Counted from the first letter of the stretch, positions 2,737 through 59,976 are shown. The stretch is DNA of 64,000 nucleotides from Protoeuglena noctilucae (GCA_958009085.1 OY253673.1:1426001-1490000); one strand, 5' to 3'. The notes: generated by a model from the letters alone, not told the origin. A program made the numbers and translations.

Positions 2737-5700
2737 TGGGTTTCTTGAACTGGAAGAGGCAATTGAGGCCCCCAGACCTGGAGGTGGCGCAAAGAGGTAG
2801 GAAACTCTTTGCCGCGCTGAAATATTTGTCGAATCGAGCGGTTGGGGTGGGAAAGGGCGATCCTTTTTGCAGCTTACGTGACCCCGCGGGGGAACCTCGA
2901 CCCCAAGCTTCGCCCCGTCACTCACCGCAGCGTCCGCAGAGGCAGGAGAGACTGCGGGGGAGGGTCCGAGGGGCGCGCACGACAAGGATAGGGAAGATGC
3001 CGCGTCCGAGTCCACCGTCTCGCTGCGGAGCTCCGGGGTGCCCGCATGGAAGCGACGCGTCGACGCCACCGACTACTTGGAGTGGCGCGAGCAGGTTGAC
3101 CCGTTTCGAGAGCGGCCCGGTGTGTTCTTCAAGGCCCTATCGCTGGTGGTGCGCGAGTGGTGGGTCCCGCGGACCGAGCTCGTGACGGAGGTCTTGGCGG
3201 GCATCGCGGGAGGCCTGTCCGGTGAGTCGCTTGTGGCCATTTCATCGGACGGGCCCTCCCCCGGCTGTCGGGAGGTTGTCCAGGGCCCGCGCCGGCCTGT
3301 GCTGCCGCCCTAATTGCGTCCGATGTTGATGGGGCCGGCATGCGGCGTCGCCTGTTTTGCCGCGCGCGCCACAGCGCCTAGCGCCTCTTTCCCTCCTCTC
3401 TAGCCCCGTGTCTCGTCGCCGTGTCATGGCAGCGTGCCCTGCTGCTTTGCAGTGATTCCCGAGGTCGTCGCCTTCGCGCTGGTGGCGGGCGTGGCCCCGC
3501 AGAGGAGCATCCAGACGTCCATGATCATCTGCGGCATCGTCACCGTCTTCGGCGGCCGCCCGGGGATGGTCTCCGCCGCTGCAGGCACGTGCGCCGCAAC
3601 ACTCGCGGCCGCAAACACCGCCCTTGCTTCGCGTGCCCTCGACCCCCTCCCTCTCGCACCTCGCAGGCGTCGTCGCCATCATCGCCAAGGGTCTCGTGTC
3701 CTTCTACGGCATCGGCCACCTCTTCTACGCCGTCATTCTCATGGGCATATTCCAGCTCGCCATCTTCGTGCTCCGCGGGGGGCAGTTCGTGCACCTCATT
3801 CCCCACACGGTCATGCAGGGGGCCTTCAACGGCCTCTCCCTCGTCATCGCCTTCGCCCAGGTGAGAACTGGCGTGGACCAGAGAGGCTTTGTGCAGCGCC
3901 CGACAACTTCAGGTCTCTTCACCTTGTGATGCGCTTGCAGCCAGACACAAGCACCCACGCTCTGCCCCTCACGTTGCGCCTTTGCAGGTGAAGGCCTTCA
4001 AGGCGGGACAGGAGGTGCACGAGCTCACCTGCCCCTCCCCGTCGTCCACCCCCGCCCCTGGCCGCCATTTGTCCAACATCCAAGTCTTTGAGCACGGGGG
4101 GTGGCTCACGGGGTCCCAGCCGCTCTGGATGCTCCTCGAGGTCGCAGTGACCATCGGGGTGAGGCGGCGTTGGGGGGGCCTTGCTTTGTCCAGGCACTAT
4201 GTTGTGTCTGAGCTTGCTGAGCACGGGGGGGTCTGGGTGCGTGTGCTGATCACCACACCACTCCCTGCGCCCAGGTCATCGTCGGGATGGGTTTCGTGAA
4301 AAACCAATACGTGCAGGCCATCCCCCGCTCCCTCATGGGCATCGTGGCGTGCATCGTGGTCGAGTTTGGGATCGTGCGCAACGCCGGCGGGCGCACCAAG
4401 TCCATCCAAGACATCGCGCAGGTGGGTGGAGTTGATAGGTCAAATGGGACACATCTCTCTCTCCTGCCGCAAGCGCGCGCCCGTCCTTGCTGCTGCCACC
4501 TTCACATACGCACCCCACTCCCCGTCACCTTCACATGCACGCGCCACTCCCGTCACCTGCTTATGCGCGCCCCCCACTCCCCCTCGCCCCCCCAGGCCAC
4601 GGGCAAGCTGCCCCAGTGGACGTGGTCCCTCTGCGGCCTCCCCGCCTTCGACACCACCCTCCTCTCCCGCATCTGGCTGCCGGCACTGTCCATGGCGGTA
4701 TCGGGTCTCCTGGAGACGGTGCTTACCCAGGCGAGTCGCGATGCAACGGGGCCATGCACGCCCCATGCTTGTCGTCCACCACCACTGCATCCAACCCCTG
4801 ACCCCGCACTCGTGTCAGCCACACCACTGCATCCGACCCCGCGCTCGCCCCATCCCCTTGCAGGCGATGGTGGACGGCGTGACGCAGTGGCACACCAGCC
4901 CCAGCCGCGAGATCTTCGCCCAGGGCCTGGCCAACGTGGTGGCCGGGTGCCTGGGCGGCACGGGCGGCGCGGCCATGATCGGCGAAACCATGGTCGTGCT
5001 GCAGTCCGGGGGATACAGGCGCTTGGCCACGCTGGCCATCTTCGGCCTTTTGCTCATCATCAACACGGCCGCGTACCCCGCCATCAACGTGATTCCCATC
5101 AGCGCCCTGGTCGGCGTCATGTGGGTCGTGTGCGCGCGCACCATCGACCTGCGCGCCCTGCGCGTGGCCTTCACGTCCTTCCTCCCCGCCCGCCTCCGCC
5201 GCGCGTGGGGCTTCGCGTCCGACCACAAGGTGCGGCGCATGGACGCCCTCGTGCTCCTGGCCGTCACCGTGCTCACCGTCGTCCTCGACAACCTGTTCAT
5301 CGCCGTCGCCGTGGGGCTCGTCGCCACCGCCCTCGCCTTTGCCTGGGACGCCTCGTCCACCCTCCACCTGGCGGCTGTTACGGACACGGTCGACGATCGG
5401 GGGAGGCCCCGGCGGGTCTACGAGATCCAGGGGCCACTCTTCTTCGGGAGCGCCAGGAGATTCTTGGATTTCTTCGACCCGGTGAGGGCGCGGGAGTGCG
5501 GGAGAGTGCTAGAGAGCATGCACGGATGCCTGTGATTCGGTATTAAGATGCAGCGTGCATAGATGTTTGTGCTTTTGTCTGCGCTGCCGCCCCTGCCCAC
5601 GTCTCCACTCACACCCACGCTCATGCCTCTGTTCATGTCTCTACTGGCATCCCCGCTTACACCCCGGCTCATGCCCACCACCCCACCACCCTCCCCTCCT

Positions 5701-6077
5701 CCCAGCGCGGGGGCCCGGGGGACGCCGAGGTGCACTGCCAGGAGATGAGCATCATGGACTACAGCGGCCTGGAGGCCATCGCGAATCTGGGCGCGCAGTA
5801 CCTCGAGGCCGGCAAGCGCGTGCACGTGCGATACCTGCGGCCCAAGTGCCTGCACATGGCGCGAAAGGCCAAGGGGGTCGCGCAGGCGGTGGTGGTGGAG
5901 CAATTCGACGATGCCTTTGTGGAGGAGGTAGAGAGGGGCATTGGGGGAGAGGGAACTGCGGGGGGTGCGAGCGGGGGTGGCCAGGAGTCCTGGCGCGTGC
6001 AGGTTGAGCCCAGCCGGCATTCCATCGACATCGCCGCGCACCGACCCGAGGCCGAATGGGAGGGCTTCCACGCCTGA
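2737..6077 (+). CDS. SulP/SLC26 family anion (sulfate/bicarbonate/dicarboxylate) transporter with C-terminal STAS domain
   Basis: Spliced motifs EVLAGIAGGLSVIPEVVAFALVAGVAP, FGGRPGMVSAAAG, GAFNGLSLVIAFAQ, LLETVLTQAMVDGVT...PSREIFAQGLANVVAGCLGGTGGAAMIGET, and STAS YEIQGPLFFGSA...IMDYSGLEAI. The first exon is less certain. Confidence 0.9.
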
Positions 6078-10201: not shown

Positions 10202-13200
10202 ATGCCCGCCTTGAACCCTGCATCGCAACCTGCGCTGCAGCTCACCATGCTCGAATGCGACGCGTGTGGAACGCAATTCGATACCCCGGCCAAGCTCGCC
10301 CGGCATCAGCAAAGATGCCCTGCGCTGTGGGGCTGGAGATATGGCGAGGAGAGCCGCCAGGAAGCACCCCGCCCCGCCGCCCCACACGAACACTATGTCT
10401 CTCCGTCTCTGCGAGGCTCGGACGGGCTGGCACGCGACAGCGCCAGCGCGGGACCAGACCAAGAACTGCGGGAGGAAGACGGGACGGCGGACGTTGCTGC
10501 GGGCAGTGATGGCGAGAGCGAAGATGTAGGACTCGCGTGGCTCCACTACGCCGACACGGACGTGGACATGGACGTGGACATTGACTCGGAGAGGGGTGAA
10601 CCGCCCGAGAGCGCCGGAGCGCATGATGCGCCCCAAGAGGACGCTCCTGGAGTCTCCTACCTTCCTGCGCCCGGGGAGTACGAACCGCTGAAGCTGCCGG
10701 AGGACCTGGAGGCATGGCGGGCCAGGAGCAGGGACAGTGACGATGAGTACCTGAGCCAACTTGAAGCAGGGGCGCAGTTCATGGCATCGCTGACGGCAGC
10801 GCATTTCGATTGCTTCGTGAAGCTGCGCCCCGACATCCGCGACGACCTTCTCGACCTCGGGCGCTCCCACCGCACGTTCCACACCTCACTCAACAGCATC
10901 CATGGCCAGTACGAGGTGCGTCACGCCGCGGTGCCGCTTGTGTCGAGGGCCTCGGACGCGGCCGAGGGGGCTGACGCCAACCAGTGCACGCACGGCCTGC
11001 AGGTTTTGCAAGAGGAGGGCAGCACAACCATCATCTACCAAACGATAACGGTGCTGAGGGACATGCTGGTGCACGCGGAGCAGATCAAGCCCAAGACGCT
11101 CGTTAAGTTGATGCGAGACTTCAGCGAGGCACGGGAACGGTCACGCCAGGCGCGGGCGAGACCACATGAGACGCATCCCAGCATCCACGAGAAGCTCACC
11201 TTCTCCCGGGCGAAGGGGTATAGCGACATAGCCGAGGCTGTCGCTGGCAAAGTCCGCCCCGAGCTGCACGCCCGGCTGCTCCTCGTGCCCGTCGCGTACA
11301 GCATCGACGGGGTGGAGATGACCAAGGGCGCATCGACGACGCCCATCCACATGCACCTCCTGTCGCCTTGCAAGGCCGTGAGGACAGGGACGCCGCGAAC
11401 CGTGGCCACCGTCGAGTCCATGAAGGCGAGAGGAGGATTGCCGGCGTTGCAGCCCACACGTCCACCACCACGCCGCGTGTATGAGTTGTCGCTCGAGGCC
11501 CCCGCAGGTGTCCGGGATCACTCCGGGGTCACAGGCAGACCTGAACAACAGAGAGGCCATCCAGCGGCGGCTGGCTGCCGTGGACCGGCAGCTGATTGGC
11601 GTGGCGAGGTCCGGTGGGGTGTGGATGACCCTCCCCGACGTCGGGAGAGTCATCGTCTTTCCCGTCTTGGCGGCGCAGCTGAACGACATGGTGGCCAACT
11701 CGTCCACGCTGGCCGTCAGGTCGTGCCCGCTGTGCCTCCAGGATGACTGCCGCACGCCTCGCACCGTCGCGCTGCATCGCCTCCAGGTGCAGCACATCCT
11801 GCGCTTGAGGAGGGACGTGGGGACGGCCAGGGCCAACGAACAAGCCAGGGAGAGCAAAATTCATCCTGTGGTTCCTGCCCTGTCGTACTGGGACGAGTTC
11901 GGGTCGGACTTGTATCAGGGCCAAGCACCTGACCCCATGCACACCGTGGAACTGGGAATGTTGGGCAAGACTGTTCCCTTCTGCATACTGACCGTCCTCT
12001 ACAACAACGCGGCAGCGGGAGAGTCTGCGACAAAGGCAAACGCCCTCTTGGCTGCGTTCGCATCGATCATTGCGGATGCCAAGGTGAGCTGCAGGTCAGG
12101 CAATGGCGTGCGTTGCCTGCAGTGGCGCCGCAGCTGCTCGGTATTCACCTGGCATGTCCATCGTCGTGTGGGTGGAGCGCAGGCCCCGGCATGGATCCAC
12201 GCCCGTCCGTGGGGCGAGACCTTCCAGATCGTGCTGAGCCTCGTGGACCCGTTTGGGAAGATAAAGGCGTACGAGGCGAGGTTCTTGATCCAAGCTCTGC
12301 CTTTCGCCCTCGTCGAGCTCTTCTCTCGAGGCGAGGCCGACAGTCAGCGCTGCGAGGGCATCGGGAGGAGCTGCGGGTATCGCGATGCGGGCCGGGGAAC
12401 CCCGGGAGTGTTTCCCCACCACCACATCCCTTGCAGAGCCTACGGGCAGCAAAGACGTGCACGACGAGAGGGTTGGGCTCGTGGCCGTAGCCCTGGCATG
12501 CCTTCAGCTCTATGCCGAATGGTCCCTGGAGAGCGCCACCATCGCAGGGGCGCAGGCGGCGGACGCGCAGCTGAATAAGGTCCTCCACGTGAGGCCTTCT
12601 CCAACACCAGCCCCATCGTTCGCTGCCCCTTACTCACTCTGGAAGCCTTGTCGCTGCCGTGTCGCCGCAGGTCGTGCTCAAGACGCTGCTGCGTGGCCAC
12701 GAAATCGTCCGCACGGAGAAGCCCCTCTTCAGCAAGATCGAGAACAGCCAGAAGTGCCACGCGCTTTCGCATTTCCCTGCAGTGGTGGCGAGGAACGGCT
12801 CCATCATGTTGGGCAGCATGAACGACGCCGAGCGCATGCACAAGCCCATTGCCAACGCGCGCACGAACGGCAAGGGCGACGTGCAGGTACAGGCAAGAAG
12901 CGCCGCCCAGCGTAGGCGACGCGGGGAAGCCCACGCAGGACGCGTTTCTTGCGACTCACACGTCTCGATGCGGTCGCACGGCGCTCGACCCGCGTGCCAT
13001 GCTGAGCCGCGCTGGACTGACCCCCGAGCCCTGTCGCAGGCGAGCACCAGCGTCATCTCTCAGAGGGCGGCCTCCGTCATCAAGAGCCGGGCGAGGGCGG
13101 AGCAGCCGGTCCCGTCCCAGCCCGAGGACCAAGTGAAGGGCGTGAAGACCGTCCTGAAGAAGAACGACCTGTGCAGCGAGGGACGCGCGGAAGACTTCGT

Positions 13201-14402: not shown

Positions 14403-14602
14403 GCCAATGCATGAAACTAAGGGCAAATTCTGACTCTCAGGGGCCAGGGACGAGCTCCGAGCATCTGTGAAGGAGACACGGGCACCTGCGCACCGGGCTG
14501 CGCGTCTGGGCCGTCCCATCCGCTGGTGCAGCACGCGCGAGCGTAGTGGGGGCTGTTGAATGACGTCGCCTTCGGTGCCTGGCTACTACCGCGAGACCGA
14601 CA

Positions 14603-18126: not shown

Positions 18127-18265
18127 GCGGAGCGCTGCTGGGGCGCGTTGTCGTGAAAGGACCAGGCGATAGACGTTGAACAAAGTGCTAGATGCTGTTT
18201 GCGCTAACGAACAAGCGACACCGCAGCCCCACACTCGACTGCCACCCCGTGCATGCCTGCGCGCC

Positions 18266-22299: not shown

Positions 22300-25200
22300 A
22301 TGACCCACGCCCCGTTCGGGCGCGCGTCCGCCAACGCAAATGTAGTGGACGATGAGAAAGAATTCTCGCCCCTCTCGAACAAGCAGCCCACGGCGGAGGA
22401 GTTACAGCAGACGCAGGCGCTCAAGTGGGTACTGCGGGTTGGCGCGTGCAGCGGCGTGGAGGGCCAGCGGGATGGGACCCTCGCGCACCCGCCCTCGCAC
22501 TTGAGATGCCCATCTGCCTTGCCTGCCTGTCTCCCGCGATGCCGCGGGGGTCGGAGAGGCTGAGAAGCGCCGCAGGCACTTTGATCTCCGAACGATGGAC
22601 GCCCTCCCGACGTTGATTGTGGATGTGCAGGGTATATCTGGAAAGTTGTCGCCTGTACGAGGATCAGGCAATGCTGCAGCGGAGGGAGGAGGCGCTGGGG
22701 CGGCTCTTGGCTCTCGCGAATGAGGTGCGTACGCGATGACGCGGCGCGCGCCCTCTGTCGGCTCGACTGCGGTTCGGGGTTGGGCTCTTTGACAGCATTT
22801 GCTCACACGTGTCGCATGCAGTGGGTGAAGAGCGTCTCCCGCTCGCTGCTCTTTGACGACGCGATGGTGGAGGACCAGCGTGCCCTCATCTTCACCTTCG
22901 GATCCTATCGGCTCGGCGTGCACAATCCAGGAGGCGACATCGGTGAGCCAGGATCCATCGGGGTCGCGAGCGGCGCCATCCAGCACACAGCCGCGCGGAT
23001 CCACCGCCCTTGCCCGCCGTGCAGACGTGCTGTGCGTGGGGCCCAAGCACTGCTCCCGGGATGGCCACTTTTTCGGTGAAGGGGACGTCATATTCGAGAC
23101 GATGCTCCGCGCCCACCCGGACGTGTCGGAGGTCCACCCTGTGCCGGGGGCCTTCGTGCCCGTCATGAAGATCCGCCTCCATGGCATCGACATGGACATC
23201 CTCTATGCGTCTCTTCCCATGGTGGGTTCGCCCGCGCGGTGCCGCAAGTCTCGAGGTCCCCATCGCCGCCCCAGCCACGGTCCCACGCTGCCCCGGCCAC
23301 GTCGCTCGCCTCGTGCCATGCACCCACGCAGCCCGGCCTTGCCGAGCACTCATTCCATGCCGTCTCCGCCTTTCGAGCAGGGCCAGCTCCCCCCCGACCT
23401 GGACCTCCGCCAGGACTCGGTGCTGCGGGGCCTGGACGAGCGCACCGCCAACACCATCAACGGCTCGCGCGTCACCGACACGGTCCTCAGCCTGGTGCCC
23501 AACCCAGAGGCCTTCCACGTGGCGCTTAAGTTCGTCAAAAAGTGGGCTGAGAACCGAGGTGAGGCGGGCGGGGAGGCTCGCTGCCACCCACATATCAGCG
23601 CATGGAGCGGCGTCACATGGCGCCCCCCTTGGCCTTGGCCCCAGGCATCTACGCCAACAAGCTCGGTCTGCTGGGCGGCATCAACTTTGCTATCCTCGTG
23701 GCCAAGACGTGCCAGTGGTTTCCCACCGCCAGCGCGGCCAAGGTCGTGCGTATGTTCTTCCACATCCTGTCCGAGTGGAAGTGGCCCCGGCCCGTGCTGC
23801 TCACCCGGATCGACTACGCGAATTCCATGGGGCACAAGGTGACGGCCAGTCCACGCAGCTGCCCATGCATGCCTTGGCCCGGCCCCTGGCCCATCGATCG
23901 CGTCGCGTGTCCCTGCCGCGCAGGTCTGGGCGCCCACCAACCCCAATCCTTTCATGGACGTCATGCCCATCATCACGCCCGTCTACCCCGCCTTCAACTC
24001 CACCCACAACGTCTCCCTCGCCACCAAAGAGGTCCTCGTGCAAGAGTTCAAGCGGTGAGCCCCGCGGTCGAGCCGCCGCTGCAGCCGCCCGCTGCGGCCC
24101 GCCGACGCACGCAGCGCCGCCCCGCGCCCGTGCGCAGGGGCAGGGAGATCTGCGACCGCATCTTCGCCTCGCCGGAGCCGGATTTTGCGTCGCTCGCGGA
24201 GCTGTTCGACTTCTTCGCTGCGCACAAGAAGTTCCTGGCCATCGAGGTGCGTGGCCGCTGCGGGGTGCTCGCGATTCGCGAACTTGCAGACACCCTTGCT
24301 TCAGGCTAGACCAGCACGTGTCCACAGATCGCTGGGCGGGAGCTGGAGCACTTCAAGGCATGGCAGGGCTGGGTCATGGCCCGTCTGCGGCGTCTGGTGT
24401 CGGACATCCAGACTTACGTGTGCGTGCGGCCCTACCAGTCCTCCGTGTCGCCACCCAAGGTGCGGCGCCACCCGGGGTGGATGGCTCCCAGCACCCGCGT
24501 GTCGTGGGGGCAGCTAGCTGACTCAGCATAACCGATTCAGAAGCTATGGTCAGTGACGTCGGGAACCCCCTCGCCCCTCCCCAGGCCCACCAGGACCCCT
24601 CCATGCACCGCTGCTACCTCTTCCTCGGGCTGTCCAAGCGCAAGGGGCCCCTGCTCGAGAGCATGCAGCCGCCACCGAAGCAGATCAACCTCACGTTCCC
24701 GGCAGAGCAGTGGGCCGCCAAGGCGAGGCCTGCCGCACAGCCTGACCTGACCCTGTGCGCGCGGGGCCCCCACGCCATGGGATTGGCACGTCTGTGCCTG
24801 GGCATCCCCATGATGGAAATGCCTCATGAGCCCGCAGATTTACGAGGATTCGCGGGATTACCAGGCCAACCGCATCCGCGACGTGACCGTCACCGTGTCC
24901 CTGTGGGGCCAGGGCGACCTGCCCGCGTGGATTGGCCAGGGCAGCGACGAGCACGGGGCCAGGTGGGCGGGGTCGCCACGTAGCGCAACCCTTCCTACAC
25001 TTCACTGCGTCCGCTGGATGCCGAGCTCTGGCCGCGGCCCTGCCCGCAGCGGGGAGGATGGTGCCGAGACGCGCGTCCCCGCCCTGAGCGAGTCGCGGCT
25101 GCCGGAGGAGGAGGCGGGCGAGGGACAAGAGGCGCGGGAAGCATCCAAGGAGGGTGCCGGGGATGGCCCACGCGAGGCGGGCGGGGCGAAGAAGCGGGTG

Positions 25201-47764: not shown

Positions 47765-50700
47765 GTCCCAAGCGCCCTCCGCCCTTCAGGCTGCCCTGGC
47801 TGCCGTCCCCAGCAATGCGACCCAAGGCAGCTCTCCCATGCAAGGGGCCCCCCTGCAAGCACCCCCCATGATGCAAGGGGCCTTCTGGCCAGGGCCCCAG
47901 GCGCAGTCGCAGGCGGGGCAGCCCTTCGCCCCCCCCGGGTCCCAGCCCCTGCCCTTCTCCATGGCCCCACCCGCATACTCGCCCCCTCCCCTCCCCATGC
48001 AAGCAAGCGGACCCCTACCACCGGGCCTCCCTCCACTCCCACCCATGGCCACCTCTTCCGCTCCCTTCCCCGCGTCTGGCGCCCCCGGTGCCTCATCTGC
48101 GGCGTTTGCAGCGTCTGCCACCCTCACCGCCCCAGCCCCGCCCGCCAGCATGCCTTTGGGGGGATTCGCGCCTCCCAGTGAGGGGTTCCCCGGCTTCCCT
48201 CAGACGAGCATGCAGCTAGGGATGTACCCCGGACAGCCAGGGGGATACCCTGGCATGTACCCCGGCCAGTACCCTGGTCAGCCGGGCATGTTCCCGGGGC
48301 AGCCGGGGGGCTACCCCGGACAGCCGGGCGGATACCCGGGTATGTACCCTAACCAGCCGGGTATGTACCCTAATCAGCCTGGGATGTACCCCGGTCAGCC
48401 GGGCGCGCCGGGGGCGGGGCGTCTCCCCGGGCTGGCGGGTGAGGGTGCCGTGGCGACCATGATAACCATGCGTGGCTCTGTGGCAGCAGCGATTCTATGC
48501 ACGCCGCCTCATCTCGCCGCATCACACGCGCTCTGCTTTGCCTTTCCGCAGCCCAGCTCCTGGGCCGTGGCCGCTACCCCGGCCCCTCCGGCCTGGTCCC
48601 CTCGACTCCGCCCGTGCCGCCCCCGCCGGGGGAGACGGGGGAGCATCCCGTGGCCACCACGCAAGGTGAGCGCATGAGTGCGACATGAGTGGGACATAAA
48701 TGGGCATGGGGTGATATGAGTGGGCATGAGTAGAGACGGGGGAGCATCCCGTGGCCACCATGCAAGGTGCGCATGAGTGGGCATGGGTTGCGTGTGGCCG
48801 TCTGCTCGTGTGCGTCTGTGCTACCCCATCTGTGGACTGAGCCCTTTCGTGTCAATCATTGTGGACTAAGCACCCTCTCACCCATCGCACCCATTGCAGT
48901 GCCCCTCGCGGACGAGGCTGAGCGCGAGGAGGCGGAGGCCCAGGCCCAGGCGGAGTTCGAGGATGCGGTGCGGAGGGCCAGGGCAGACGCGGCCAGGGAG
49001 GGACGCAAGGAACAGGCGAGGGGGGAAGAGGGGCAAAATGGTGGCATGTCTTGTGATGCATGGGCGCGTGCAACTGGATGGGGTATATCGTGTCTGATGA
49101 TGCATGAGCGTGCGACTGGATGGGGTGTAACCCTTCAACCTCTCTCCCCTCCCCAGGCGGTCCGCGTGGCCCCCCCCGCGGCGGTTCCCCCCCTGGGCCG
49201 CTCCGCCCCACTCGACGCCCTCACCGACGCCAAGGTGCTGGTGCGGATGCCCGCGGGCCCCACCGAGCAGCGCAGGGCCGCCAGGCGCACGGGTCGCTAC
49301 CGCATGGAGGACTTCGGGCTGTACGTGGGGAGGAAGCCCGCGCATAGGTGGGGGGGGGGTGGGGATGTTATGGCAGGGGATGCCAGTTGGAAGAGGGAGG
49401 GCGTGAGTGTGAGAGATGGGGACATGGCATGCAAATGAACATGGCAGATGACAGAGGGAGAGCGAGAGTGCAGCCGGCATGCCGTCATGCGAAGACGTGC
49501 ACCACTCGCGCCCCCCCTGCATGACGTGACGGGTGTGAGCCAGGCATTGATACCGAGAGAGGGCCTGCCATGCATTATTATCACTCGCATCTCCCGTCTC
49601 CCCAGGTGGGCGTGGGAGGACCGCATGGAGCGCCGCCTGCAGCACGCGGTGTTGGTACACATGAGCGGGCACGTGAAGCCGCCCGGCGACCGCGCCTTGG
49701 GTCTGGACGCGGAGTTGGGGGAGGACGCGGGGGAGAGAGAGCTGCTCATGAGGGGGGGCGCGGTGGTGGGGGAGGGAGGGGACGCGGTGAGGGGGCCAGT
49801 CATGCAAGGGGGGGAAAATCACATCGGTCTGTGTCGTGAGTGAAGTGGCGAAACGCCACCTCGCTTCTGTGCAGCTGCCTCACCCCCCACCTCCCCTGCC
49901 ACCCGTGTAACCCCACACTGCCCCTACCATGCATGGCACCCCCACCCCCCCTGCCACCCCCCCGCAGCCCCCCGTGCTGGGCACCCCCCCCGCCACGGAG
50001 CTCCTCTCCCGCCGCGTGGAGTCCGCGGACCCCTTCCCCTCCGAGCCCTTCGACGCCAACGGTGTGATGGAGCAGGAGGCGGACCCCATCAAGCGCGTGA
50101 ACGGGGCCGTCATGGTGGCGCAGATCAAGAGGGGAGATCCCTTGGCGCCCCACCGGCAGCTGGAGATCGCCGGGCCGTCGTTCATGAGCGCGGGTGCGGC
50201 GGAGTTCCCCCAGTATGCCCTGGAGGTGGAGGTGGGCCGCGTGGAGATGGCAGCACACCCGGCCATGGCCAGGGAGGACTGGCTGGCGGCGCGGCTGAGG
50301 GCCATGCACCGGGACACGCGGCTGCGGGCGGCGGTGGGGCTGGAGAGACACTACTGGGAGGTGAGGGGGGGTGTGGAGAGGCATGGATTGGGTAGGGGAT
50401 CGCCTGGTTAGCGAGAGACACTACTGGGAGGTGAGGGGGGATGGGGTTGCAGAAAGCAGCATGATTGGGAGGTGATCATCGCAGCTGCATAGCACGGTCC
50501 CAGCCCCTCCCTCTTGTCAGCCCAGCTACCCCCCTTGCAGCCAGCACGCACCCCCTCAGCCCATGCCATACCCCTTCCACCCCCCCCAGCGCCTGCTAGC
50601 CTTGGAAGAGGACCTCCTCTCCTCGCGCGAGGCGGTGTTCGCCCTGTCCGTGCGCACCCCCGGGGTGTCGGCCCCGCTGTCATCCACCGTCGAGCGTGCG

Positions 50701-53700
50701 TGCGCGCGCCTGCGTCAATTAGAGGACGACGTGGCAGAGACGCGGCGGGTGATGGAATCCGAGGCACTGCGGCTGCACCGGGCGTGCGCGGCCATGCAGG
50801 CGGTCTATGCGGAGATGGAGGAGGAGCGCAGGCGGCAGGGGCACTGGCTGACGCCCCTGGTACTGCGGGTGGGGGAGGCCGCCCCTGTGGCCAGAGACGA
50901 AAGCGAGGCGTCGCGGAGGCGAGACCTGGACGTGCGCATGGCCACCGCGGAGATCGACGACGTGGTGGGGCTGGACCGGGCGCCGTCGCGGTTCACGCTG
51001 CCGCCGGGTGTCACGGGGGGCGCGCGTGCCAAGCTGAGGCGCACCGAGTCGACAATGGCGGCGTTCGCGCACCGCAAGAAGGAGGCGAGGGATGGCATGT
51101 GTGTGTGACATGGGGTCATGATAGCAGTGGAGTGACGTTGCAATGACAGTGGACTGATTGCTGACGAGAGTTGTGACTCACAGTGGGCGTCAGTGGCTGT
51201 CAGCCTTGACCGCATGCACCCTCGCTCCCACGGTGCCTTGATCGCCCACAGCGTCCCTCTCCAGCCATGACCACATGCACCCCCGCATTCACCCTCACTC
51301 AGCCCCCATCGTTGATCGCCCATCGCCACGTCTCTGTCCCTCCCCCCAGTTGGAGTCTGAGGTGGCGCGCGTGCAGCGTCTGGTGGACAGCGCCCCGGTG
51401 CCCGACCCACGCGACCGAGAGGAGCTGGCGCGGCTGAGGACGGAGCTGGCGGAGATGGGGGACGCGCCGCGGTGAGGGGGGGTTGGGGTGGGGTGGGGTG
51501 GGGAGGGGTGGGGTGGGGGGATGCTGTGACTCTGGGCCTGCCTGGGATCGACTCTATGCTCACGCCCCGCTGCACTGAGACCCTCGCTTGCCACACCCCA
51601 CACTTGTCACACCCCGCTTGTCACCCCCGCACCCGACCTTGTTCGTCACCCCCACACGTGTAGACTGCTTACCTGCCTTGCACTGAACCCTCAAGCTCGT
51701 CACACCACACGACCCCCGCTCTCTACCCACACTGCCACCCCCACCGCCACCCCCACTGCCACCCCCACTGCCACCCCCACTGCTACCCCCACTGCTACCC
51801 CCACTGCCACCTGCTCCCCCCCCCCAGTCGCCTCCCCCGCTCCCCCGAGGCCCAGCACCGTGCGGAGTCCAAGGCGGCGGCCAAGGTGGCGCGCGACGGC
51901 CCCTTCCGCGTCCTGAGGCTGCCGCGCCTGGCACCCGCGCTCTTCTGCAAGGACGACGTGGGGCCGTCCGCCGCCAATCGCGCCGCGTCACTCGCCCGCA
52001 TACGCGTGCAAGGCGAGGAGCATTCACACGCATTGCATCCACGCCTGTTACCGCGAGTTTGCGTATCTAAACCCATTTCCATCTCACTCCCCCACTCTCG
52101 AGGCACTCACGAGCGTCGCATCCACGCCTGTCACCGCGAGTTCCCCTATCTCCCCCTATCTCCGATTCCTCACCCTCACCTGATTACCTGAGCTCTTCCC
52201 CCCCACTCACCCTCACCTAGTCTCCCCCTCCAGTGCGCCTGCTGATCAACGGCCACCCCGTGGCCACCACGGACCCCCACCCCCTGGGCCCCGACTTCAG
52301 CGTCGACATCCGCGACCGGCTGCGCCTGGTGGTGCACCGGTGGCCCGAGGACGCGCGCGCGCAGGTGCTGCTGCGGGGGCGCGTGGTGGGGGAGGCGCGC
52401 ATCTACATCCCGGGTGCAGGGGCCACTCCNNNNNNNNNNNNNNNNNNNNNNNNNNNNNNNNNNNNNNNNNNNNNNNNNNNNNNNNNNNNNNNNNNNNNNN
52501 NNNNNNNNNNNNNNNNNNNNNNNNNNNNNNNNNNNNNNNNNNNNNNNNNNNNNNNNNNNNNNNNNNNNNNNNNNNNNNNNNNNNNNNNNNNNNNNNNNNN
52601 NNNNNNNNNNNNNNNNNNNNNNNNNNNNNGCACCCCCGCTCGATGTCTGTTCTGCTTATATCTACATCATATCTATATCTATATCTACATCTATACAGCT
52701 CACCGCCTCTCTCCCTCTCCTCCCCCCCCCCACCCCCCAGCCTGGTCCAGGCGCACGCCATGCGCGACCACCCCGCATGCAAGGCGCCCCTGATGCCCCC
52801 CGCCCCTCCCCCCGCGGTGGGGGGAGAGCCGCACTGCGTATTTCGCCCTCCTGCGGGTCATGCGGTGGCTGGCCAGCTCCGGGCTGGACCCCCAACGACC
52901 CAAGGAACGCGGACCTGCTGGAGCTGAAGAAGTACAGGCGAGGGATGAGATAGATGGAGGGGTAGTACAGGCGAGGGATGGGAAGGGGGTGGTAGTGGTT
53001 ACGAGGAGTTGAGAAGGAGAGGGATTTCAATGCGGCGTTGTCCGTGGGTGCAAGACAGCCGCTCTCCCTCCCCTCCCCCCCCAGGGAGCTAGAGGTGCAG
53101 CGTGGGGGTGGCGACGGCGTGGACGCCGCTCTGCCCGACGCCGGGTCGCTGCGCCTGCAGCCGGCGAGGGAGGCGGCGGTGGGGAGGGGGGGCGTGTTTG
53201 CGGCCAGGCGCGCCAAGATGCTGCGGCTGCGGTGGGAGGGGGAGACGAGGAGCAGCAAGAGCATGGGGTTCTGCATGCCGGTGAGGGAGTGAGGGGTTGC
53301 AGATCACAACACACAAGGTCGCCCTCCATCCACAGCTCTCTCCCTATCTTTGCTTGCACACCCACCACCACCCCCCTCCCCCATCACAGATCTCGGACGG
53401 CCAGGTGCAGGACCTGGACATCCACCGCCTGCTGAAACGCAGCGGCATCCCCGAGCGCGACCTCCGGCAGCGCGTGGCGGAGGAGCTGGACCTGGCGGCG
53501 CAGGAGCGGCTGGTGCGGAGGGCCATGGACGCGCCCTCGCTCACCGCCCTGCAGGACCGCAGCCGGGCGATTGCAGAGTTCGCATACGACATTCGGCAGG
53601 CGGCGGTGGCCGGCCGCGCCAGCGAGGGCGCCCCCTCCCTGCGCGCCACCGACGACGTCGTGCGGCAGCCGCGCGTCGACCTGCTGCGGCTGGACGTGGG

Positions 53701-56700
53701 GGGGGTGGTCCGGGACGCCCTGCGCCCGCGCGCCAAGCTGCGCCCGGCCCGGCAGCGCGCCGTCGTGGCATCCACGGTCCCGCGCGACCTGGCGCTGGTG
53801 GTGGTGGTGCAGTCGGCCGAGCACCTGCCCATGCGCGCCGAGGCTGCCGAGGCGGTGCGCGATGCGGGGGGATACCTGGGCCCATCCGCGGACGAGCAGG
53901 CGCTGCTTGCGTGTTTCGCGGAGGTGCTGTTCGGGGACTACGCCGTGCGCACGCAGACGCAGATCGGCACCTCCGCCTCCTTCAACGAGGTGGGGGGGGG
54001 CTGCTTATATGTGTGCCGCTTAGATGTGTGCCTTGGAAAGATGTGTGCCTTAGAAATGAGATGTGTTCATTGCGGATGGAAAGGCAGTCCGCCTTCTTCC
54101 ACGAGGTGGGGGTGACACTGGCTGGATGTGCGTGTGGTGGGTTTGCAGTGCCGGGGTCGCATGCGGCGAGTGGCTGTGTCTGATTGCTGTAGTTGCGAGG
54201 CTCAGCAGCAGTGGCGTCTCCCCACTCTGCCACTCTCGCCCCCCTCCATGCCCGTCGCTCATCCATAACCGTAACCCCTCCATCCCCCACCCCAGGTCCT
54301 CACGCTCCCCGTGGAGGCCCCCGACGGCCAGGAGCTGACCCCTCGCTTTTTATGGCTGTACGACGAGCCCATCGTGATCAACTTCTTTGACGAGGTGGCC
54401 GTGCAGACGGGAGGGGGGCTGCGGCCCAGGGAGGGCGCGGACCTGTCCAAGTACAAGCCCGCCATCGGGCAGGGGCAGGCGAGGGCAGTTTGCTGTACAG
54501 CGCGTTCCCTGCTCTGACTAAAGCACATTCCCTACCCCTTCCTCGCACGCACCCCCACCCTGCACCCACGCCCGTCGCACCCTCACCTGTCCCCCGCCCC
54601 CTTCGCAGACGGTGGTGACATTGGAGCGTCGCTTTTTGGGTTCTCTCCGCGTCCCCTTCTCGTCCGTCTTCAAGGCCGGCTCACTGCAGGGGTCCATGCG
54701 CATCGACGTCCCTGCTGCCAGCCTGGGGTACACCCACAACCCGGCGGGGAGCCCGTCCGCCACCGTGTTCATCACCATGGCGAGTGGCATGGATGACCCA
54801 TGGTGGCAGTCTGCGCGTAGAGCAGGGTAACAAAGATGCAGGGATGCCCTCTGCACTGCGAGCGTGTCCGGCGACCGTGACATGCACGCCCACTGATGCG
54901 TTGCGCGTAGAGTGATAGAGACACACAGACGCTCTCTGCATGGCGTGCATGTATCAGGCAGCTGTGACATCATACATACACCCCCACCCTCCCCCCCGCA
55001 GAGTCCCCAGGTGCCCCACCCCGACCCCGTCATTGACGAGCAGAGGGCGGGGGAGAGCCCAGAGCTGCAGGCCAGAGTGGCAGAGGCGAGAGATGCGCAT
55101 GAATTCACACCCACTGCAATGGCATGCGACGCTGTTCACCCCTGCTATCTACTCTGCAGTCGCAGCAGCACACACCCCTCGCGTTCACTCCACAGTGGCA
55201 GCAACACGTGACCACCCACCCCCCTCCCCTTCCCCCCCGCAGTGGCAGCAGGACGTCTTCCGCCGCACCCGCGGCCGCAACCGCGCCTCGTTGGTGGCCG
55301 TGGACAAGGCAGGCACGGCCGTGCTCATGCTGCGGTACGTCGCCCCGATCCCCTCCCCCCCCTCGCTAGCCGTGCGCCCCGAATCCGGCGCCGCTGCCCC
55401 GCGTCGCCTGGCATGGTTCGTCTCCCATGTGCCGTTCGTGGAGGACGACAACCTGGAGGCCGACCGCGAGGACATCTGGATGACGGCGGCCGACTTTGTG
55501 CGGCTGGGGGCGGGGGACCAGGAGGAGCACGCCTGCCTGCTCGCGGGGTACTTCCTCAACATGGGGCAGGCGAGATGTGAATGGGGGGTAGATGCGGACG
55601 GCCAGGAGTGTGGCCCTGTCGACACGTCGCGTCTCTACCCTTCCTTCACTCCCCTTCCATCTCAACCCCTTTGCTCGCATCGCATCTCTCTCTTTCACCC
55701 TTGTCTCTCCCCTCCCTCTCATCGGATCTCTTTCACCCACTCATGCCCCATATCTCTCATCGACCCGCCCCCCCCCCCCCCCCCTATCGTCATATTAACA
55801 TCATCCACTTATATCCCTCCCCCTCCATCTCCCACCCCAGGAGGCCTTTGTGGTGTCCGGCACCTCCACTGCCTCCAGCAGCGACTACTTCGTCCTCACC
55901 ACGGGCAGGGCACACGACGAGGGGCGGTGGGCGCTGCAGCCGGGGCAGAAGACCACCCCCACGGACATCGCAGGCAGCGGCATCACGGGCGAGTGATGCG
56001 ACACGGCCACGGTCGCTGCGTGCCCATGCACTGCCCTATCCCACCGCATGCGTCGTCACTCATACGCCCACTATGGCACTATGGCCACCACTGTTCCCTC
56101 CCCTAACCACCGCATGCGGTGCCACTCATCCCCTCTCCCGTCTTCACGGCATGCTGTATCTCACTCCTCCCCCTTCCTTCCCCCCCCCAGTCGCGTCTCT
56201 CACCCTCTGGAATGCCACCAAGGGCACATCCGTCCCCGCCACGGACCCACAGAACGAACTCCGCGCCGTGTCGGTGGTGTTCAACGGGGGTGAGTTGCCG
56301 GGCAGATGGGGTGCATTAATGAGATGAGACCACGCGCTTTGACGTTGCTGCATAGTACTAGCTGCTCTTATACGCTGCCGCACAGCAGCAGGAACACCGC
56401 CGTACAGCTCCCCCCCCCTCCCTCTCCCCCCAGCCAACGCCTGGGCCAACGTGCAGCCGTCCGCGCACCCCTGGGAGATCGACTGGGACCTCGACAACCC
56501 CCGCCTGTGGATGCCCCTCTTCAGCCCCGCGTTCCCACCGCGCAGCCTCGCGTCCGTGCAGGGGGAGGTGAGACGGGCGGGGAGGCAGTTTGTCATGAGT
56601 GGAACAACGATGCCCATTCATGCTGCCATGCACCCACCGCATGCGAGTGTTGTGTCACCCACTCCCCCTCTCACGCACCGCATTGCACTCATCCTCTCTC

Positions 56701-57690
56701 CCCAGGTGTCGTATGAGGAGCACCGCCACGAGTTCTTCGAGGACCTGGCGCGGAAGCTGGCCGAGGAGGTGCGGGAGGTCATCCGCGACGCACGCCTGGA
56801 TCTGCTCTCCACCACCGCCCACTTCGACGCCACCCTGGACACCAAGCTCAAGGCGAGGATGGGGGGGAGGTGGCGTGGATGACATGCGTGCATGCATTGC
56901 TCTACTGCTTATCACTGCTCGCCTCTGCCTCTGATCCCGCCCATGCTGACCCAAGCACACAGCCCCTCACTTCCCCATCACCATACGCCCTCACCTGCCC
57001 CCACCCTCCATCACCTCCCCTCACCCGCCCTCACCTCCCCGCCCCCCCAGCGCCTCCTCCGCGACGCCCACGCCGACATGGAGAGAGGCTTCGCGTCCCT
57101 CCCCGCGTCGGACCCCCCCCCCGGCGTCGGCACCCTGGGTTCTTCGACCGTGGGGCGGTACCCCCGTGCAGCGGTCGAGAAGATCCAGGGCGACCACCGA
57201 GCGGTGCTGCTGCGGGAGTTCCCATCCTACGACGTGCAGGGGGTACTGCTGCACATGCCATTCGGGGACATCGAGGATAAGCTGGCCGAGGTCATCCTCA
57301 ACACCGGTGAGCGTGTTGGAGAGGGGGAGGGTGTGTATGTGGGTGTGGGGGTGGGTGAGGGTGGGGATGAACGGGGAGAGAGAGATGCGCGTGGGTGCTT
57401 GTGATGAACATGCGAGAGAGGGAGTCGAGAGTGGGGAGTCGCACCGGCTGTCTTCGTGAGGGATGCGTCGTCACTCACCCGCACCGCCCCGCTTCCCCCG
57501 TGCAGACCTGCACATGGCCCTGGGCGAGGGGGTCAAGTTCGGCGTGGACGTCCACTGCCAGCCCATGGGGTGCAGGTTCGCATTCCCCGTCTACATCTAC
57601 CTCGTCCACCTCCGACGCAAGCCCGCACACCTGCCCAGGGAACGGGGCCCTGCGCTGCCGCAGCCGCAGCCGCAGCCGCAACTCCGATAG
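47765..57690 (+). CDS. CC2D2A: Coiled-coil and C2 domain-containing protein 2A (MKS6, ciliary transition zone); true start probably upstream (about 47080-47510)
   Basis: [37 protein letters not shown]2 [13 protein letters not shown]...[19 protein letters not shown]2 [11 protein letters not shown]...FNEVLTLP...INFFDEV...[15 protein letters not shown]-like FVSHVPF...DIWMT...[16 protein letters not shown], and WANVQP. Spans an assembly gap. Confidence 0.9.
48222..48402 (+). repeat. Coding tandem repeat (G/M)YP(G/N)QPG, about 9 units
   Basis: Translates as [61 protein letters not shown]. Confidence 0.9.
51730..51812 (+). repeat. Intronic 12-bp minisatellite (CACTGC(C/T)ACCCC)n
   Basis: About 6-7 tandem copies are directly visible. 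Confidence 0.85.
52430..52629. other. Assembly gap (200 N) inside CC2D2A
   Basis: Run of N characters. Confidence 1.
52657..52697 (+). repeat. (ATATCT/ACATCT)n microsatellite
   Basis: tatatctacatcatatctatatctatatctacatctata is directly visible. Confidence 0.85.
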
Positions 57691-58335
57691 CACGGCCGAG
57701 GCGCCGGCGCTGACTTTGGACTTTTCTCAGCTTGCCAGTGACAGATTGTGACACTCGCGACCCACGCACTTGAAACGGCACTGCATCTGGCGCCAGACAC
57801 GGCCGCCATTCGCTTATCCGCCAAAGTGCGAATAAGTGGGGTCTAATGCGACTGTGGGCAATCCGCGCGGCACCGTTAAGGGCGTATCTAGCATACACTG
57901 CACCCGCGTGCGCAAAAATCGACACGAGGGCAAGAGGCATCGGGTTGTGCTTCGCGACGCACACAAGAGGCCCCCGCCGGTCGTTATAGATAGGGTCCAT
58001 CCGATCGGCTTTGCAGCGGAGCACACGGCGCCAAACCTGCCCGTTGCAGGGCATGCAGAGTCCCGCGTTTGAAATTCTCGCTCTGGGTGGACGTCGCTGA
58101 ATAAGCGTATCCTCACGGAGGTCGTGGAGAGGGAGGGAGAGCGAGGTGACGCGTGGCGGGTGGCTGCGGAGCGGCCTTTCCGCGTTTTGCTTGTCATCTT
58201 TGTTTCTTCCCCCCTCCCCCGTCGCTGGTCGATGTCGCCGCACCCGGCCAATGGCGCTGCTTGCTGTCGAAGTATGTGCGAGGCCAGTGCGACGACGAGC
58301 GGCCCTAGACGACCACTCCGCAGGTGCTCCCGGGG

Positions 58336-59863
58336 ATGGCCATGGTGCAGGTGTACGCCGAGCCCTTCGCGCGGCGGCAATACGCGCCGTGGGTGTCGCA
58401 TGCCGTCGTCTACCGCATCCTTTCGTGGGCCCTCACACGTGAGTCGCTGACATGAAGCCACGCGCCGCTCGCTCCCGCGGGTGGGATGCGACCCGTGCCC
58501 CTCCCGCCCCCAGTGCTCGCGTCGGCGGTGATTGCGTTCGCGGCGGGCGGCCTGTGGGAGAAGTACAGCGTGGCGGTGTCCCAGCCGACCGTGGACTTCA
58601 CGTATGACATGGTGGTGGTGCTGGAGGGGGACGCGTCGGCCGGGGGAGGGGAGCGGGTGTGGACGACGTCGGCGGCGATGAACGCGGCGCTGGGCCCGCG
58701 TCTGCTGGCGGCGAGCGTGCAGGTGGCGGCGGACGACGAGAACAACGACGGGAAGAAGGACGTGTTTGACATTGTGTGGAGGGGGTACGGGGCCAGGGCC
58801 GTCACGGGGGTCAAAGTCCTCACGCAGGTGAGGGGGCAGGGGCAGTGGTTGGTAGGGGCAGTGGTTGGTAGCACAGACTCACGCAGGCGAGGGGCAGTGG
58901 TAGGGACAGGGCAGGGGCAGGGGCAGGGTAGCACCGTCGTCCTACAGACGAGGGGCAAAGCCAGTGGTAGGGGCAGGAACGGGACTTATCTGCCAATGCG
59001 AGGGTGGTCTTTCACCCGCGTGCCTGACCACATCTCACTTACCGTCGTCGCTCGCAGTACAAGTACACGTTCAACGACACGGTCAGCCTGCAGATGTACT
59101 CGCTGGCCTATGCGGAACACGCGGGTGCCGCGCCCGGCCGTGGCGCCTACATCGACGGGCAGCTGCGCCTGGTGCAGGACGTGGTGCCGGCAGCCAAGGC
59201 AGTGCGGTGAGGGGGCGCAAGGTGGGGGTTAGCATGCAGCAGCACTTATGCAGCGGCACCGCTCACACTGCCGGTCCCCTCTCCTCCCCGCAGCACCCAG
59301 TACCTCTCCAAGCCCCTCCAGGACCCCGGCAGCGGCACCGACACGCTTCAGCCCACCGTGGAGTCCAACCTCGTGCGCATCCTGGCATCCTACCACGACC
59401 GCGACGAGGCGAGCGGGGGGAGAGAGGGACGCGGTTGTGAGTGAATGAGTTGAGTTGAGAGCACACGCACAGCTGCACTTATGTGTTTGGCTGCCCCGCA
59501 GGTGACGGTGCTGGACAGCCCCACCCGCGTGTGGCAGGTGGGGGACTCTTCGGAGTTCGTGCTGCAGATGCGCGTGAGGGTCCCCAAGGCACAGGAGTAC
59601 CGGTACAAGAGGCGAGAGCTGCATTGGGATAGCACCACCACCCACGGCCACTGCTCTGCCGCCGCGTCGACCCATGCGACCACCCCTTCCCTGCTCCCCC
59701 CAGGGACCGCCTGCAAGTGCTCCTCCTGGCCTGGGTCCAGATCCTCGCCATCTTCTACGTCCTCTGGTGGCTCGTCGGCCGCCTGTCCTCGGTGCTCTTC
59801 CACTTCCGCGTCTTTCGCACCCGCGTGGCATCGGACCTCGACAAGAAGCTACACCACTTCTAG
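58336..59863 (+). CDS. TMEM231: Transmembrane protein 231 (MKS module, transition zone)
   Basis: MVQVYAEPFARRQYAP, GGLWEKYSVAVSQPTVDFTYDMVVVL, DENNDGKKD, AYIDGQLRLVQ, FVLQMRVRVP..EYRY, LQVLLLAWVQILAIFYVLWWLV...LF. Stop TAG at 59861-59863. Confidence 0.88.
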
Positions 59864-59976
59864 TATAGGGGACGCTAGGATGATAGGCACGGGGGATGCG
59901 GGGTTTGCATGCGCGCACGTTCAAGCGATCGAGTGTCACTACGTCACTAGGTCACAGCAAGGGCGATGGCCGCATG

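Follow-up and report, generated by a model that had tools for sequence, protein, structure and literature searches.

GC-AG introns are genuinely spliced out and form a large minority of the introns in a 64,000-nt stretch of the Protoeuglena noctilucae assembly (GCA_958009085.1, OY253673.1:1426001-1490000), referred to below as the window. A trait of this kind is already in print for Emiliania huxleyi and is therefore not a new one. GC-AG introns account for 10 of the 35 introns supported by RNA or by homology (29%, 95% CI 15-46%, for the window only and with RNA joints as listed) and for 26 of the 72 confident ab initio introns of the window (36%). The unusually high share claimed in a first-pass annotation is borne out by these counts; its estimate of about one intron in five falls within the confidence interval and lies under both point estimates. 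All listed introns are on the + strand, and the GC content across the window is 0.63-0.75 per 4 kb.

Donor sites and evidence

The nineteen GC donors proposed by the first-pass annotation all read G/GC on the + strand (the slash marks the start of the intron). Seventeen continue as GCGAG, the exceptions being 3585 (GCACG) and 12893 (GCAAG), and AG stands directly before 18 of the 19. The motif AGGCGAG occurs 49 times in the window vs 15.0 +/- 3.6 in shuffles, and AGGTGAG 33 times vs 8.7 +/- 3.1. As introns, five of the nineteen are confirmed by RNA, four are supported by homology and three by Pfam continuity (approximate for 59409); six are ab initio predictions only, and 32180 is without support.

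The RNA evidence consists of assembled contigs from runs X1 and X2, two marine metatranscriptome samples of one study; joint counts refer to the joints listed here, beyond which lie 22 more joints and 304 pieces. Pfam profiles were run on the stop-to-stop ORFs of the window. In the ab initio parse the prior on position +2 was neutral and the site models were trained on 25 GT introns only; with these GT-only-trained models, 18 of the 19 claimed donors are kept, as is a further one at 55989. Forbidding GC donors costs the parse 454 bits over the strand, and the substitute donors mostly score below 5 bits. Our own small gene finder over-predicts on the antisense, where the parses give many weak introns, so that the ab initio share counts strand-assigned genes only. 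Both the spliced aligner and the ab initio parser presuppose AG acceptors, and the canonical AG can thus be judged from the RNA joints only.

The CC2D2A-like gene

Twelve RNA joints are listed in a CC2D2A-like gene (contigs X1 and X2), six of them GC-AG and six GT-AG:

50361-50589, + strand, GT-AG intron, RNA joint
53281-53389, + strand, GT-AG intron, RNA joint
53990-54295, + strand, GT-AG intron, RNA joint
54479..54608, + strand, GC-AG intron, claimed donor 54479, skipped by RNA contigs of both X1 and X2
54780..55001, + strand, GC-AG intron, claimed donor 54780, RNA joint
55086..55242, + strand, GC-AG intron, claimed donor 55086, RNA joint
55570..55840, + strand, GC-AG intron, claimed donor 55570, RNA joint
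55989..56190, + strand, GC-AG intron absent from the first-pass annotation, donor cgg/GCGAGTG, RNA joint
56290-56433, + strand, GT-AG intron, RNA joint
56568-56705, + strand, GT-AG intron, RNA joint
56853..57050, + strand, GC-AG intron, claimed donor 56853, RNA joint
57307-57505, + strand, GT-AG intron, RNA joint

Six of these joints are legal only as GC..AG, and no shift within the alignment ambiguity yields GT..AG. The two kinds of intron are intermixed within one transcript, whose five GT-AG introns span 53281..57505 on the + strand, and the ten spliced exons of this transcript form a single open frame of 716 codons. Given this mixing with GT-AG introns, it is probably the major spliceosome that excises the GC-AG ones. 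None of the donors among the 12 listed joints is GA, GG or AT, position +2 being a pyrimidine in all 12, and the acceptor is AG in every case. The first-pass suggestion of a simply relaxed recognition of +2 does not hold, since none of the 12 introns begins with GA or GG.

Four further claimed introns of the gene have no RNA joint among those listed:

49016..49156, + strand, predicted GC-AG intron, ab initio only (donor 10.9 bits, acceptor 13.9 bits)
51085..51349, + strand, predicted GC-AG intron, ab initio
52013..52233, + strand, probable GC-AG intron, ab initio, with the Pfam CC2D2A N-terminal C2 domain starting at most 1 codon from the predicted acceptor
52938..53084, + strand, predicted GC-AG intron adjoining an assembly gap, ab initio only

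The parse retains the donor at 49016 even when its site models have learned from GT introns only. Upstream of 49616, the RNA contigs carry 30 letters that do not occur in the window. Close to 51085, the match of RNA contig X1 record 2 ends at 51082, with 292 letters unplaced among the matches listed, and an unspliced X3 contig carries identical letters across the donor. Around 52938 the reading frames are unsafe, because the preceding exon differs from the RNA contigs by five single-base gaps. A metagenome locus retrieved with a CC2D2A exon as query (L001) gave a weak match, 45% identity over 25 residues, and was set aside.

SulP and poly(A) polymerase genes

Homology supports a GC-AG intron twice in a SulP gene and once in each of two poly(A) polymerase paralogs:

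3585..3666, + strand, GC-AG intron, SulP gene, donor cag/GCACGTG, homologue P0001 and spliced aligner
4731..4863, + strand, GC-AG intron, SulP gene, tblastn match ending at 4730 and spliced alignment
24723..24837, + strand, GC-AG intron, poly(A) polymerase paralog 1, tblastn match to P0023 ending at 24722, spliced aligner in agreement
29225..29430, + strand, GC-AG intron, poly(A) polymerase paralog 2, donor 29225 or 29234, paralog position, ab initio parse and aligner

When all dinucleotides were compared against the homologue P0001, the 3585 junction scored highest (333, the best GT junction reaching 268), and the same was found at 4731 (319, vs 296 for GT). Over the whole SulP gene the alignment score is 1354 when only GT is admitted vs 1530 when GC is allowed, and the best junctions, chosen blind to the dinucleotide, comprise two GC and four GT introns with consensus signals throughout. 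As a separate observation on this gene, Haptophyta is the most frequent phylum in the Atlas cluster nearest to a SulP exon, where 7 of 110 members have a known phylum, a weak indication of haptophyte affinity; an Atlas search with a poly(A) polymerase exon pointed to no taxon.

The poly(A) polymerase paralogs contain 8 and 7 GT introns, respectively, and one GC intron each at a matching site, 24723 and 29225 being the homologous position in these two old paralogs. For paralog 2, the matching position in the other paralog and the ab initio parse place the donor at 29225 and the spliced aligner places it 9 bases downstream, at 29234; both are GC. GT-only alignments are poorer for both paralogs (1127 vs 1157 and 1088 vs 1106). 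None of the homologue searches with SulP, poly(A) polymerase and TMEM231 retrieved a near-identical annotated protein.

TMEM231 and other genes

The remaining claimed sites are distributed over a TMEM231 gene, an NmrA-like gene and a gene that had been labelled a transposase:

59409..59501, + strand, probable GC-AG intron, TMEM231 gene, TM231 profile (approximate) and ab initio
59612..59703, + strand, GC-AG intron, TMEM231 gene, exact TM231 profile continuity and ab initio
11426..11507, + strand, predicted GC-AG intron, "transposase" gene, ab initio only
12331..12436, + strand, predicted GC-AG intron, "transposase" gene, ab initio only
12893..13039, + strand, predicted GC-AG intron with GCAAG donor, same gene as 11426, ab initio only, acceptor weak (2.5 bits)
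32180..32184, + strand, candidate GC donor after an NmrA-like exon, donor 8.9 bits, absent from the ab initio parse

The TM231 profile match breaks off at base 59609 (profile position 259) and takes up again at 59711 (position 263), a gap of exactly the three codons left by the spliced form. At the preceding intron the profile match begins at 59502, the first base past the predicted acceptor at 59501, with a residue count that differs from the profile by about 6. For TMEM231, the sole hit of the homologue search was the read-through ORF of the window itself, and the RNA joints listed include none at 59409 or 59612. The donor at 32180 has no acceptor that would open an exon with either a coding signal or homology to NmrA. 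A single short intron can start from it, 85 bases long with an acceptor of 2.6 bits, and this leads into a coding score of -17 bits; three ORFs downstream have no NmrA-like match in PDB. The "transposase" ORF has no homologue among longer proteins and no family in Pfam or PDB, and the genes at 14-22 kb likewise gave no family in Pfam or PDB; the labels "transposase" and "ORC3" of the first-pass annotation find no support in these databases.

Composition of the splice signals

Apart from position +2, GC and GT introns share the same signal, with a G/GYGAG start, a C-rich tract and a CAG end. G occupies +3 in 36 of 37 introns, and over the final 20 intron bases C makes up 56% and T 16%, so that the 3' tract is C-rich and not T-rich; GC pressure, which had been put forward as the driver, fits these data, in which splice signals outside +2 have likewise shifted towards GC. 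The GC donors follow the U1-type consensus, with G at -1 in 12/12, G at +3 in 11/12, A at +4 in 11/12 and G at +5 in 12/12. Thanaraj and Clark reportedly described, in 2001, a stricter consensus at GC donors. Here, AG precedes the donor in 10/12 GC vs 13/25 GT introns (p=0.08; GC 6/8 vs GT 5/10 in the subset chosen blind to the consensus), and GAG occupies +3 to +5 in 11/12 GC vs 14/25 GT donors (p=0.058; 7/8 vs 8/10 in the unbiased subset). The consensus of GC donors is not significantly stricter than that of GT donors, and the exon-side AG compensation proposed earlier is retained as a trend that does not reach significance.

Origin of the GC donors

These introns are probably of the ordinary U2 type and come from a marine protist with a GC-rich genome that may be a haptophyte; a large minority of its donors carry C for T at +2. 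The standard spliceosome would read both GC and GT donors, given that all other donor positions match the usual U1/U6 pairing pattern, and genome-wide GC-biased mutation or gene conversion may have moved the T at +2 to C, a change that would have arisen in the same way as the G at +3 and the C of the pyrimidine tract. The condition matches the published state of Emiliania huxleyi, which its authors, too, explain by genome GC. It is very improbable that the junctions are mis-set, the true introns using nearby GT donors or the stretches not being introns: GGC-GAG (Gly-Glu) is common in GC-rich coding sequence, AGGCGAG occurs inside exons too (e.g., at 50919 and 52971), and the unsupported 32180 and the six purely ab initio sites would agree with such an error, but for the six introns whose RNA joints admit no GT..AG shift it is refuted, and GT-only scoring is lower for SulP, for both paralogs and for the strand parse. 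Membership in another intron class, either U12-type or dinoflagellate-type with GC/GA donors, has only the non-GT start in its favour and is hardly credible. U12-type donors carry ATCC after the first two bases, whereas the donors here read GCGAG in 11/12 and GCACG in the other; dinoflagellate-type introns start with GA as well as with GC or GT and have a G following the acceptor AG, whereas none of the 12 listed RNA joints has a GA donor and the exon base next to AG varies, G not being favoured. GC and GT introns moreover alternate within one transcript.

An unlikely reading, which is that of the first-pass annotation, is that the lineage has re-tuned its 5' splice-site recognition by a change in the U1 5' end, U6/U5 or U1C/Prp8 that lets +2 be read equally well as C or as U. 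One example would be a purine facing +2 and able to pair with either base, and the GC donors would then result from the altered machinery, not from mere tolerance by the standard one. Other GC-rich algae have GTGAG donors with a standard U1, which counts against such a change, and GC pressure accounts for the parallel shifts at +3 and in the pyrimidine tract with the machinery unchanged. On the other side stand a share far above the approximately 1% of human introns, a +2 that is only ever a pyrimidine in the 12 listed RNA joints, and GC donors that are not clearly stricter elsewhere in the site, so that compensation alone is not demonstrated; the two old paralogs have also retained a GC donor at their shared site, and in tunicates a mass loss of GT/AG is linked to U1/U6 and U2AF changes (PMC13326754). 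That the spliceosome co-evolved with the GC-rich genome, the U1 base facing +2, or a U6/U5/Prp8/U1C contact, having changed to read C and U, is quite unlikely; such co-evolution would explain the pyrimidine-only +2, the GC donors without a clearly stricter consensus and the GC donor kept in both paralogs. Rfam gave no match at all within the window, snRNA genes included, and our literature search found no paper examining the snRNAs of any GC-donor-rich alga.

Comparison with known systems

The closest published parallel is the coccolithophore Emiliania (Gephyrocapsa) huxleyi. In Feldmesser et al. 2014 (PMC4028052), GC donors make up 56% of 241 curated junctions and, in Cufflinks models, 61%; Sanger sequencing confirmed 9 GC junctions, and the authors credit the 65% genome GC. 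PhycoCosm 2020 (PMC7779022) gives approximately 55%. Both organisms are GC-rich marine forms (approximately 65% GC in E. huxleyi) with GC and GT donors mixed within genes, acceptors that are nearly all AG and many unspliced forms in RNA, with genome GC offered as the cause. They differ in the share, published as 55-61% there vs 29-36% here, in one 64-kb window; 10/35 against a published 0.58 gives a binomial p=0.0005, which is optimistic because introns cluster by gene. With this lower share and no near-identical annotated proteins, the source may be other than E. huxleyi; should it be a different haptophyte, the trait would extend further within that phylum than has been published. The first annotation of E. 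huxleyi had 15% GC donors in its models vs approximately 60% in RNA (PMC4028052), and gene finders that insist on GT would likewise get about one intron in three wrong in the present genome.

Raised shares have also been described in the pelagophytes Aureococcus anophagefferens and Pelagomonas calceolata, with 14-17% predicted GC-AG introns (bioRxiv 10.1101/2024.10.30.620910). These are GC-rich marine algae as well, and genome GC is credited by the authors; in contrast to the present case they have 0.19-0.92 introns per gene, one gene in the window having more than 20, and the share here is about twice as high. Haptophyte genomes are given as 58.7% to 73.3% GC in PMC11347835, and the P. globosa genome paper mentions neither GC-AG introns nor splicing. 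GC-AG introns are approximately 1% of human introns (PMC3167603). Ordinary GC-AG introns of the U2 type, as known from animals and plants, resemble those described here in their GC start, AG end and U1-type donor consensus elsewhere; they differ in frequency, which is about 30x higher here, and in their reportedly stricter consensus, which is not significant here. The window adds a locus-level, RNA-backed case in which donor +2 can drift to C at large scale with the other signal retained. A lineage-wide departure from the GT donor is shared with the copepod Eurytemora affinis, which has approximately 12% GA/GG donors (PMC5714493), and with tunicates, in which 95% of introns are non-GT/AG and U1/U6/U2AF are changed (PMC13326754), both as given in the abstracts; unlike in those lineages, the change observed in the window is confined to T to C at +2, with no GA/GG donors and with canonical acceptors in the 12 listed RNA joints.

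Spliced RNA contigs

GC-AG and GT-AG introns alternate within one transcript of the CC2D2A gene, have all other signals in common and are removed. Contigs of the marine metatranscriptome RNA runs X1, X2 (two samples of one study) and X3, and of X5, whose kind is not on record and which is colinear with the window, were aligned to 44001-64000, every shift within the alignment ambiguity being tried at the splice joints. Of the words sampled from 52630-60500, a fraction of 0.21-0.40 is present in four marine metatranscriptome runs belonging to one study, and 0.97-0.98 in four runs labelled 'organism A'. Two contigs from different samples (X1, 2476 letters; X2, 2411 letters) lack eleven stretches of the 53.2-57.5 kb region, and another X1 contig skips 50361-50589. 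Among the 12 joints listed, which derive from assembled contigs of one study, GC..AG is the sole possibility at six and GT..AG at the other six, the acceptor is AG at all 12, and GA, GG or AT donors number zero.

GC-AG introns at RNA joints of the X1/X2 contigs
54479-54608, + strand, GC-AG intron
54780-55001, + strand, GC-AG intron
55086-55242, + strand, GC-AG intron
55570-55840, + strand, GC-AG intron
55989-56190, + strand, GC-AG intron, absent from the first-pass annotation
56853-57050, + strand, GC-AG intron

The first-pass annotation had proposed 19 GC donors from the sequence, and the joints confirm five of these (54479, 54780, 55086, 55570 and 56853). Once joined, the ten exons between the joints stay open in one frame for 716 codons, against 7 and 4 stops in the other frames.

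The X5 contig spanning 44001-51724 retains the intron 50361-50589. X3 contigs at 50596-51111, 52997-53508 and 61889-62294 read through introns that are spliced in X1/X2, and the share of X3's aligned letters running on unlike the window is 0.01; this read-through reflects intron retention, which has been published for Emiliania huxleyi, or else DNA carry-over into the library. The window's single run of 200 N (52430-52629) interrupts the CC2D2A C2-domain exon, and just past it the X1/X2 contigs lack single bases of the window at 52774, 52784, 52787, 52819 and 52889, a pattern suggestive of errors in the local assembly or of a strain difference, so that the frames at 52430-52889 are unsafe. Upstream, the same contigs agree with the window from 49616 (the acceptor of the ab initio parse being 49605), and up to 255 preceding letters are found nowhere in the aligned 44001-64000, the last 30 of them having no match in the window even with 2 mismatches allowed; they may represent a variant or an alternative upstream exon. 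Two strong GT donors, 57307 and 57355, lie 48 bases apart in one frame; the RNA contigs take 57307, the parser favours 57355 (tgg|GTGAGGG), and the pair may constitute an alternative 5' splice site.

Homology and profile evidence

By Pfam, the + strand carries a SulP gene, two tandem poly(A) polymerases, an NmrA-like exon, CC2D2A (an N-terminal C2 domain and a CEP76-type peptidase-like domain), TMEM231 and a Borealin-N-like exon, and the - strand a TPR gene and Erg28. Junctions were examined with our own junction scorer and protein-to-genome aligner, in which GT and GC were penalised equally. Against the SulP homologue P0001 (609 aa, 60% identical), GC is the top junction, whatever dinucleotide is considered, at 3585, where it scores 333 and the best GT 268, and at 4731 (319 versus 296), and GT is the best choice at four other junctions; restricting the alignment to GT lowers its score from 1530 to 1354. 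For the poly(A) polymerases, three homologues agree on GT introns, eight in paralog 1 and seven in paralog 2, and alignment of the homologue P0023 adds one GC intron to each, 24723-24837 and 29234-29430; in the second case, the donor is 29225 both by alignment of the paralogs and in the ab initio parse, as opposed to the aligner's 29234. GT-only scores are 1127 versus 1157 and 1088 versus 1106, respectively. The paralogs (22425-24837 and 26393-29430) have eight intron positions in common, with the same phase and donor class (seven GT, one GC). An extra GT intron, 23839-23923, is present in paralog 1, the corresponding paralog 2 exon (27506-27833) being undivided. Left out of the count were the two terminal SulP introns of the aligner, whose ends are weak (3191-3452 and 5987-6128), an intron of paralog 1 that ends at 24584 (donor GC in the aligner, GT in the ab initio parse), the paralog 2 GT intron from 28457 (acceptor unclear) and the regions of disagreement among the homologues, past 24943 and 29523. 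None of SulP, poly(A) polymerase and TMEM231 had a near-identical annotated protein in the homologue searches, which speaks against the E. huxleyi strain that has been annotated, although the completeness of that annotation is low (51.8% by BUSCO). In one Atlas cluster close to the SulP exon, Haptophyta is the most frequent phylum, on the basis of 7 labelled members out of 110.

Domain profiles bear on other donors. The TM231 profile has its position 259 at base 59609 and its position 263 at base 59711, so that an intron 59612-59703 leaves exactly three codons; the preceding TM231 match begins at 59502, the first base past the predicted acceptor of 59409-59501. Likewise, the CC2D2A C2-domain match starts at most one codon from the acceptor of 52013-52233.

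Ab initio parsing

A small Viterbi gene finder of our own took its codon log-odds from confirmed exons totalling about 7 kb and its splice-site matrices from a set of 33 confirmed introns; at +2, T and C were given the same probability. It picks 18 of the 19 claimed donors, and site models from 25 GT introns alone (8 GC removed) keep the same 18 and add 55989. Disallowing GC donors costs 454 bits, the replacement donors mostly scoring below 5 bits and several negatively. Since the finder misplaced 2/33 training introns and over-predicted antisense strands, introns were counted in strand-assigned genes only, where GC donors make up 36/105, or 26/72 with a minimum of 6 bits at both sites. For the following six claimed donors, the support is the prediction of this parse.

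GC donors predicted by the ab initio parse
11426, + strand
12331, + strand
12893, + strand
49016, + strand
51085, + strand
52938, + strand

Near 51085, an X1 contig match ends at 51082, with 292 letters unplaced among the matches listed. For the claimed but unconfirmed donor 32180, NMRAL1 homology stops about 16 codons upstream, the ORFs downstream give no NmrA match in Pfam or PDB, and the sole short intron possible enters sequence with a negative coding score. The + strand labels 'transposase' (10151-13702) and 'ORC3' (14600-22000) were not supported, neither region having a Pfam family at E<=0.01; the one Pfam signal is a sub-threshold C2H2 zinc-finger match at 10151-11743, the PDB search was empty for both regions, and a search of longer proteins with the 'transposase' ORF gave no homologue. 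On the - strand, strong GC donors are predicted at 19668 and 19130 in the TPR gene (18314-20100), and a very long gene (33800-45400), with eight predicted introns of which one is GC (donor 37371), holds an unbroken ORF of 1524 codons (37225-41796) that has no Pfam match.

Share of GC-AG introns

Combining the RNA joints listed (6/12) with homology (4/23), GC-AG introns amount to 10/35 (29%, 95% CI 15-46%). This is far over 1% (p=1e-12), indistinguishable from one in five (p=0.21) and under 58% (p=0.0005) on the assumption, not true here, that introns are independent; per gene, the share ranges from 1/8 in the long - strand gene to 10/21 in CC2D2A. The high GC-AG share claimed from the sequence is thus confirmed, its estimate of one in five being at the low end and the share found here somewhat higher.

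GC-donor-rich introns as a phenomenon are already in print. In Feldmesser et al. (2014, PMC4028052), E. huxleyi is described as having 135 GC donors in 241 curated junctions, with 100% AG acceptors, and 61% GC donors in Cufflinks models, GC and GT donors standing at about 3:1 in ESTs; nine GC junctions were confirmed by Sanger sequencing, intron retention was frequent, and the authors ascribed the GC donors to the 65% GC genome. Extracts of other sources give about 55% GC donors for the same species (PhycoCosm, citing the 2013 genome paper; PMC7779022), place it among genomes rich in non-canonical introns (Olthof et al. 2024, PMC11347168) and report 14-17% GC-AG in pelagophytes (bioRxiv 10.1101/2024.10.30.620910). 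The accessible parts of the Phaeocystis globosa genome paper (PMC11347835) tabulate haptophyte genome GC of 58.7-73.3%, give 51.8% BUSCO completeness for the E. huxleyi annotation and mention neither GC-AG nor splicing. Our literature search on GC-AG in haptophytes returned no haptophyte besides E. huxleyi, and no study of snRNAs in a GC-donor-rich alga was found.

Splice signals

All 19 claimed coordinates carry G|GC on the + strand, which bears out the donor letters; AG directly precedes 18 of them and GCGAG is found at 17, the exceptions being 3585 (GCACG) and 12893 (GCAAG). On both strands, AGGCGAG occurs in 49 copies versus 15.0 +/- 3.6 in dinucleotide-preserving shuffles and AGGTGAG in 33 versus 8.7 +/- 3.1; the two donor-like words are therefore about equally enriched. 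The signals were surveyed in 37 introns, including two hand-picked GC cases, with G in 36/37 at both -1 and +3. It had been suggested that an exon-side AG compensates for the C at +2. AG does precede GC donors more often (10/12 versus 13/25 GT donors, p=0.08; 6/8 versus 5/10 in the consensus-blind subset of RNA and SulP introns), a non-significant trend in the proposed direction and not an established result; GAG at +3 to +5 behaves similarly (11/12 versus 14/25, p=0.058; 7/8 versus 8/10 in the blind subset). Only pyrimidines occur at +2 of the RNA joints listed, which argues that recognition is not simply lax; the major spliceosome would read GC and GT donors alike. The reading that GC pressure is the driver is supported by splice signals that are GC-shifted, in a window whose GC fraction is 0.63 to 0.75 per 4 kb, and the T-to-C change at +2 would be one part of this general shift. 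In the 37-intron set, C makes up 56% and T 16% of the final 20 intron bases, and G accounts for 43% of positions +7 to +26. A branch-like CTSAY word (CTCAC-like) is found in 15/35 3' windows versus 3/35 control windows.
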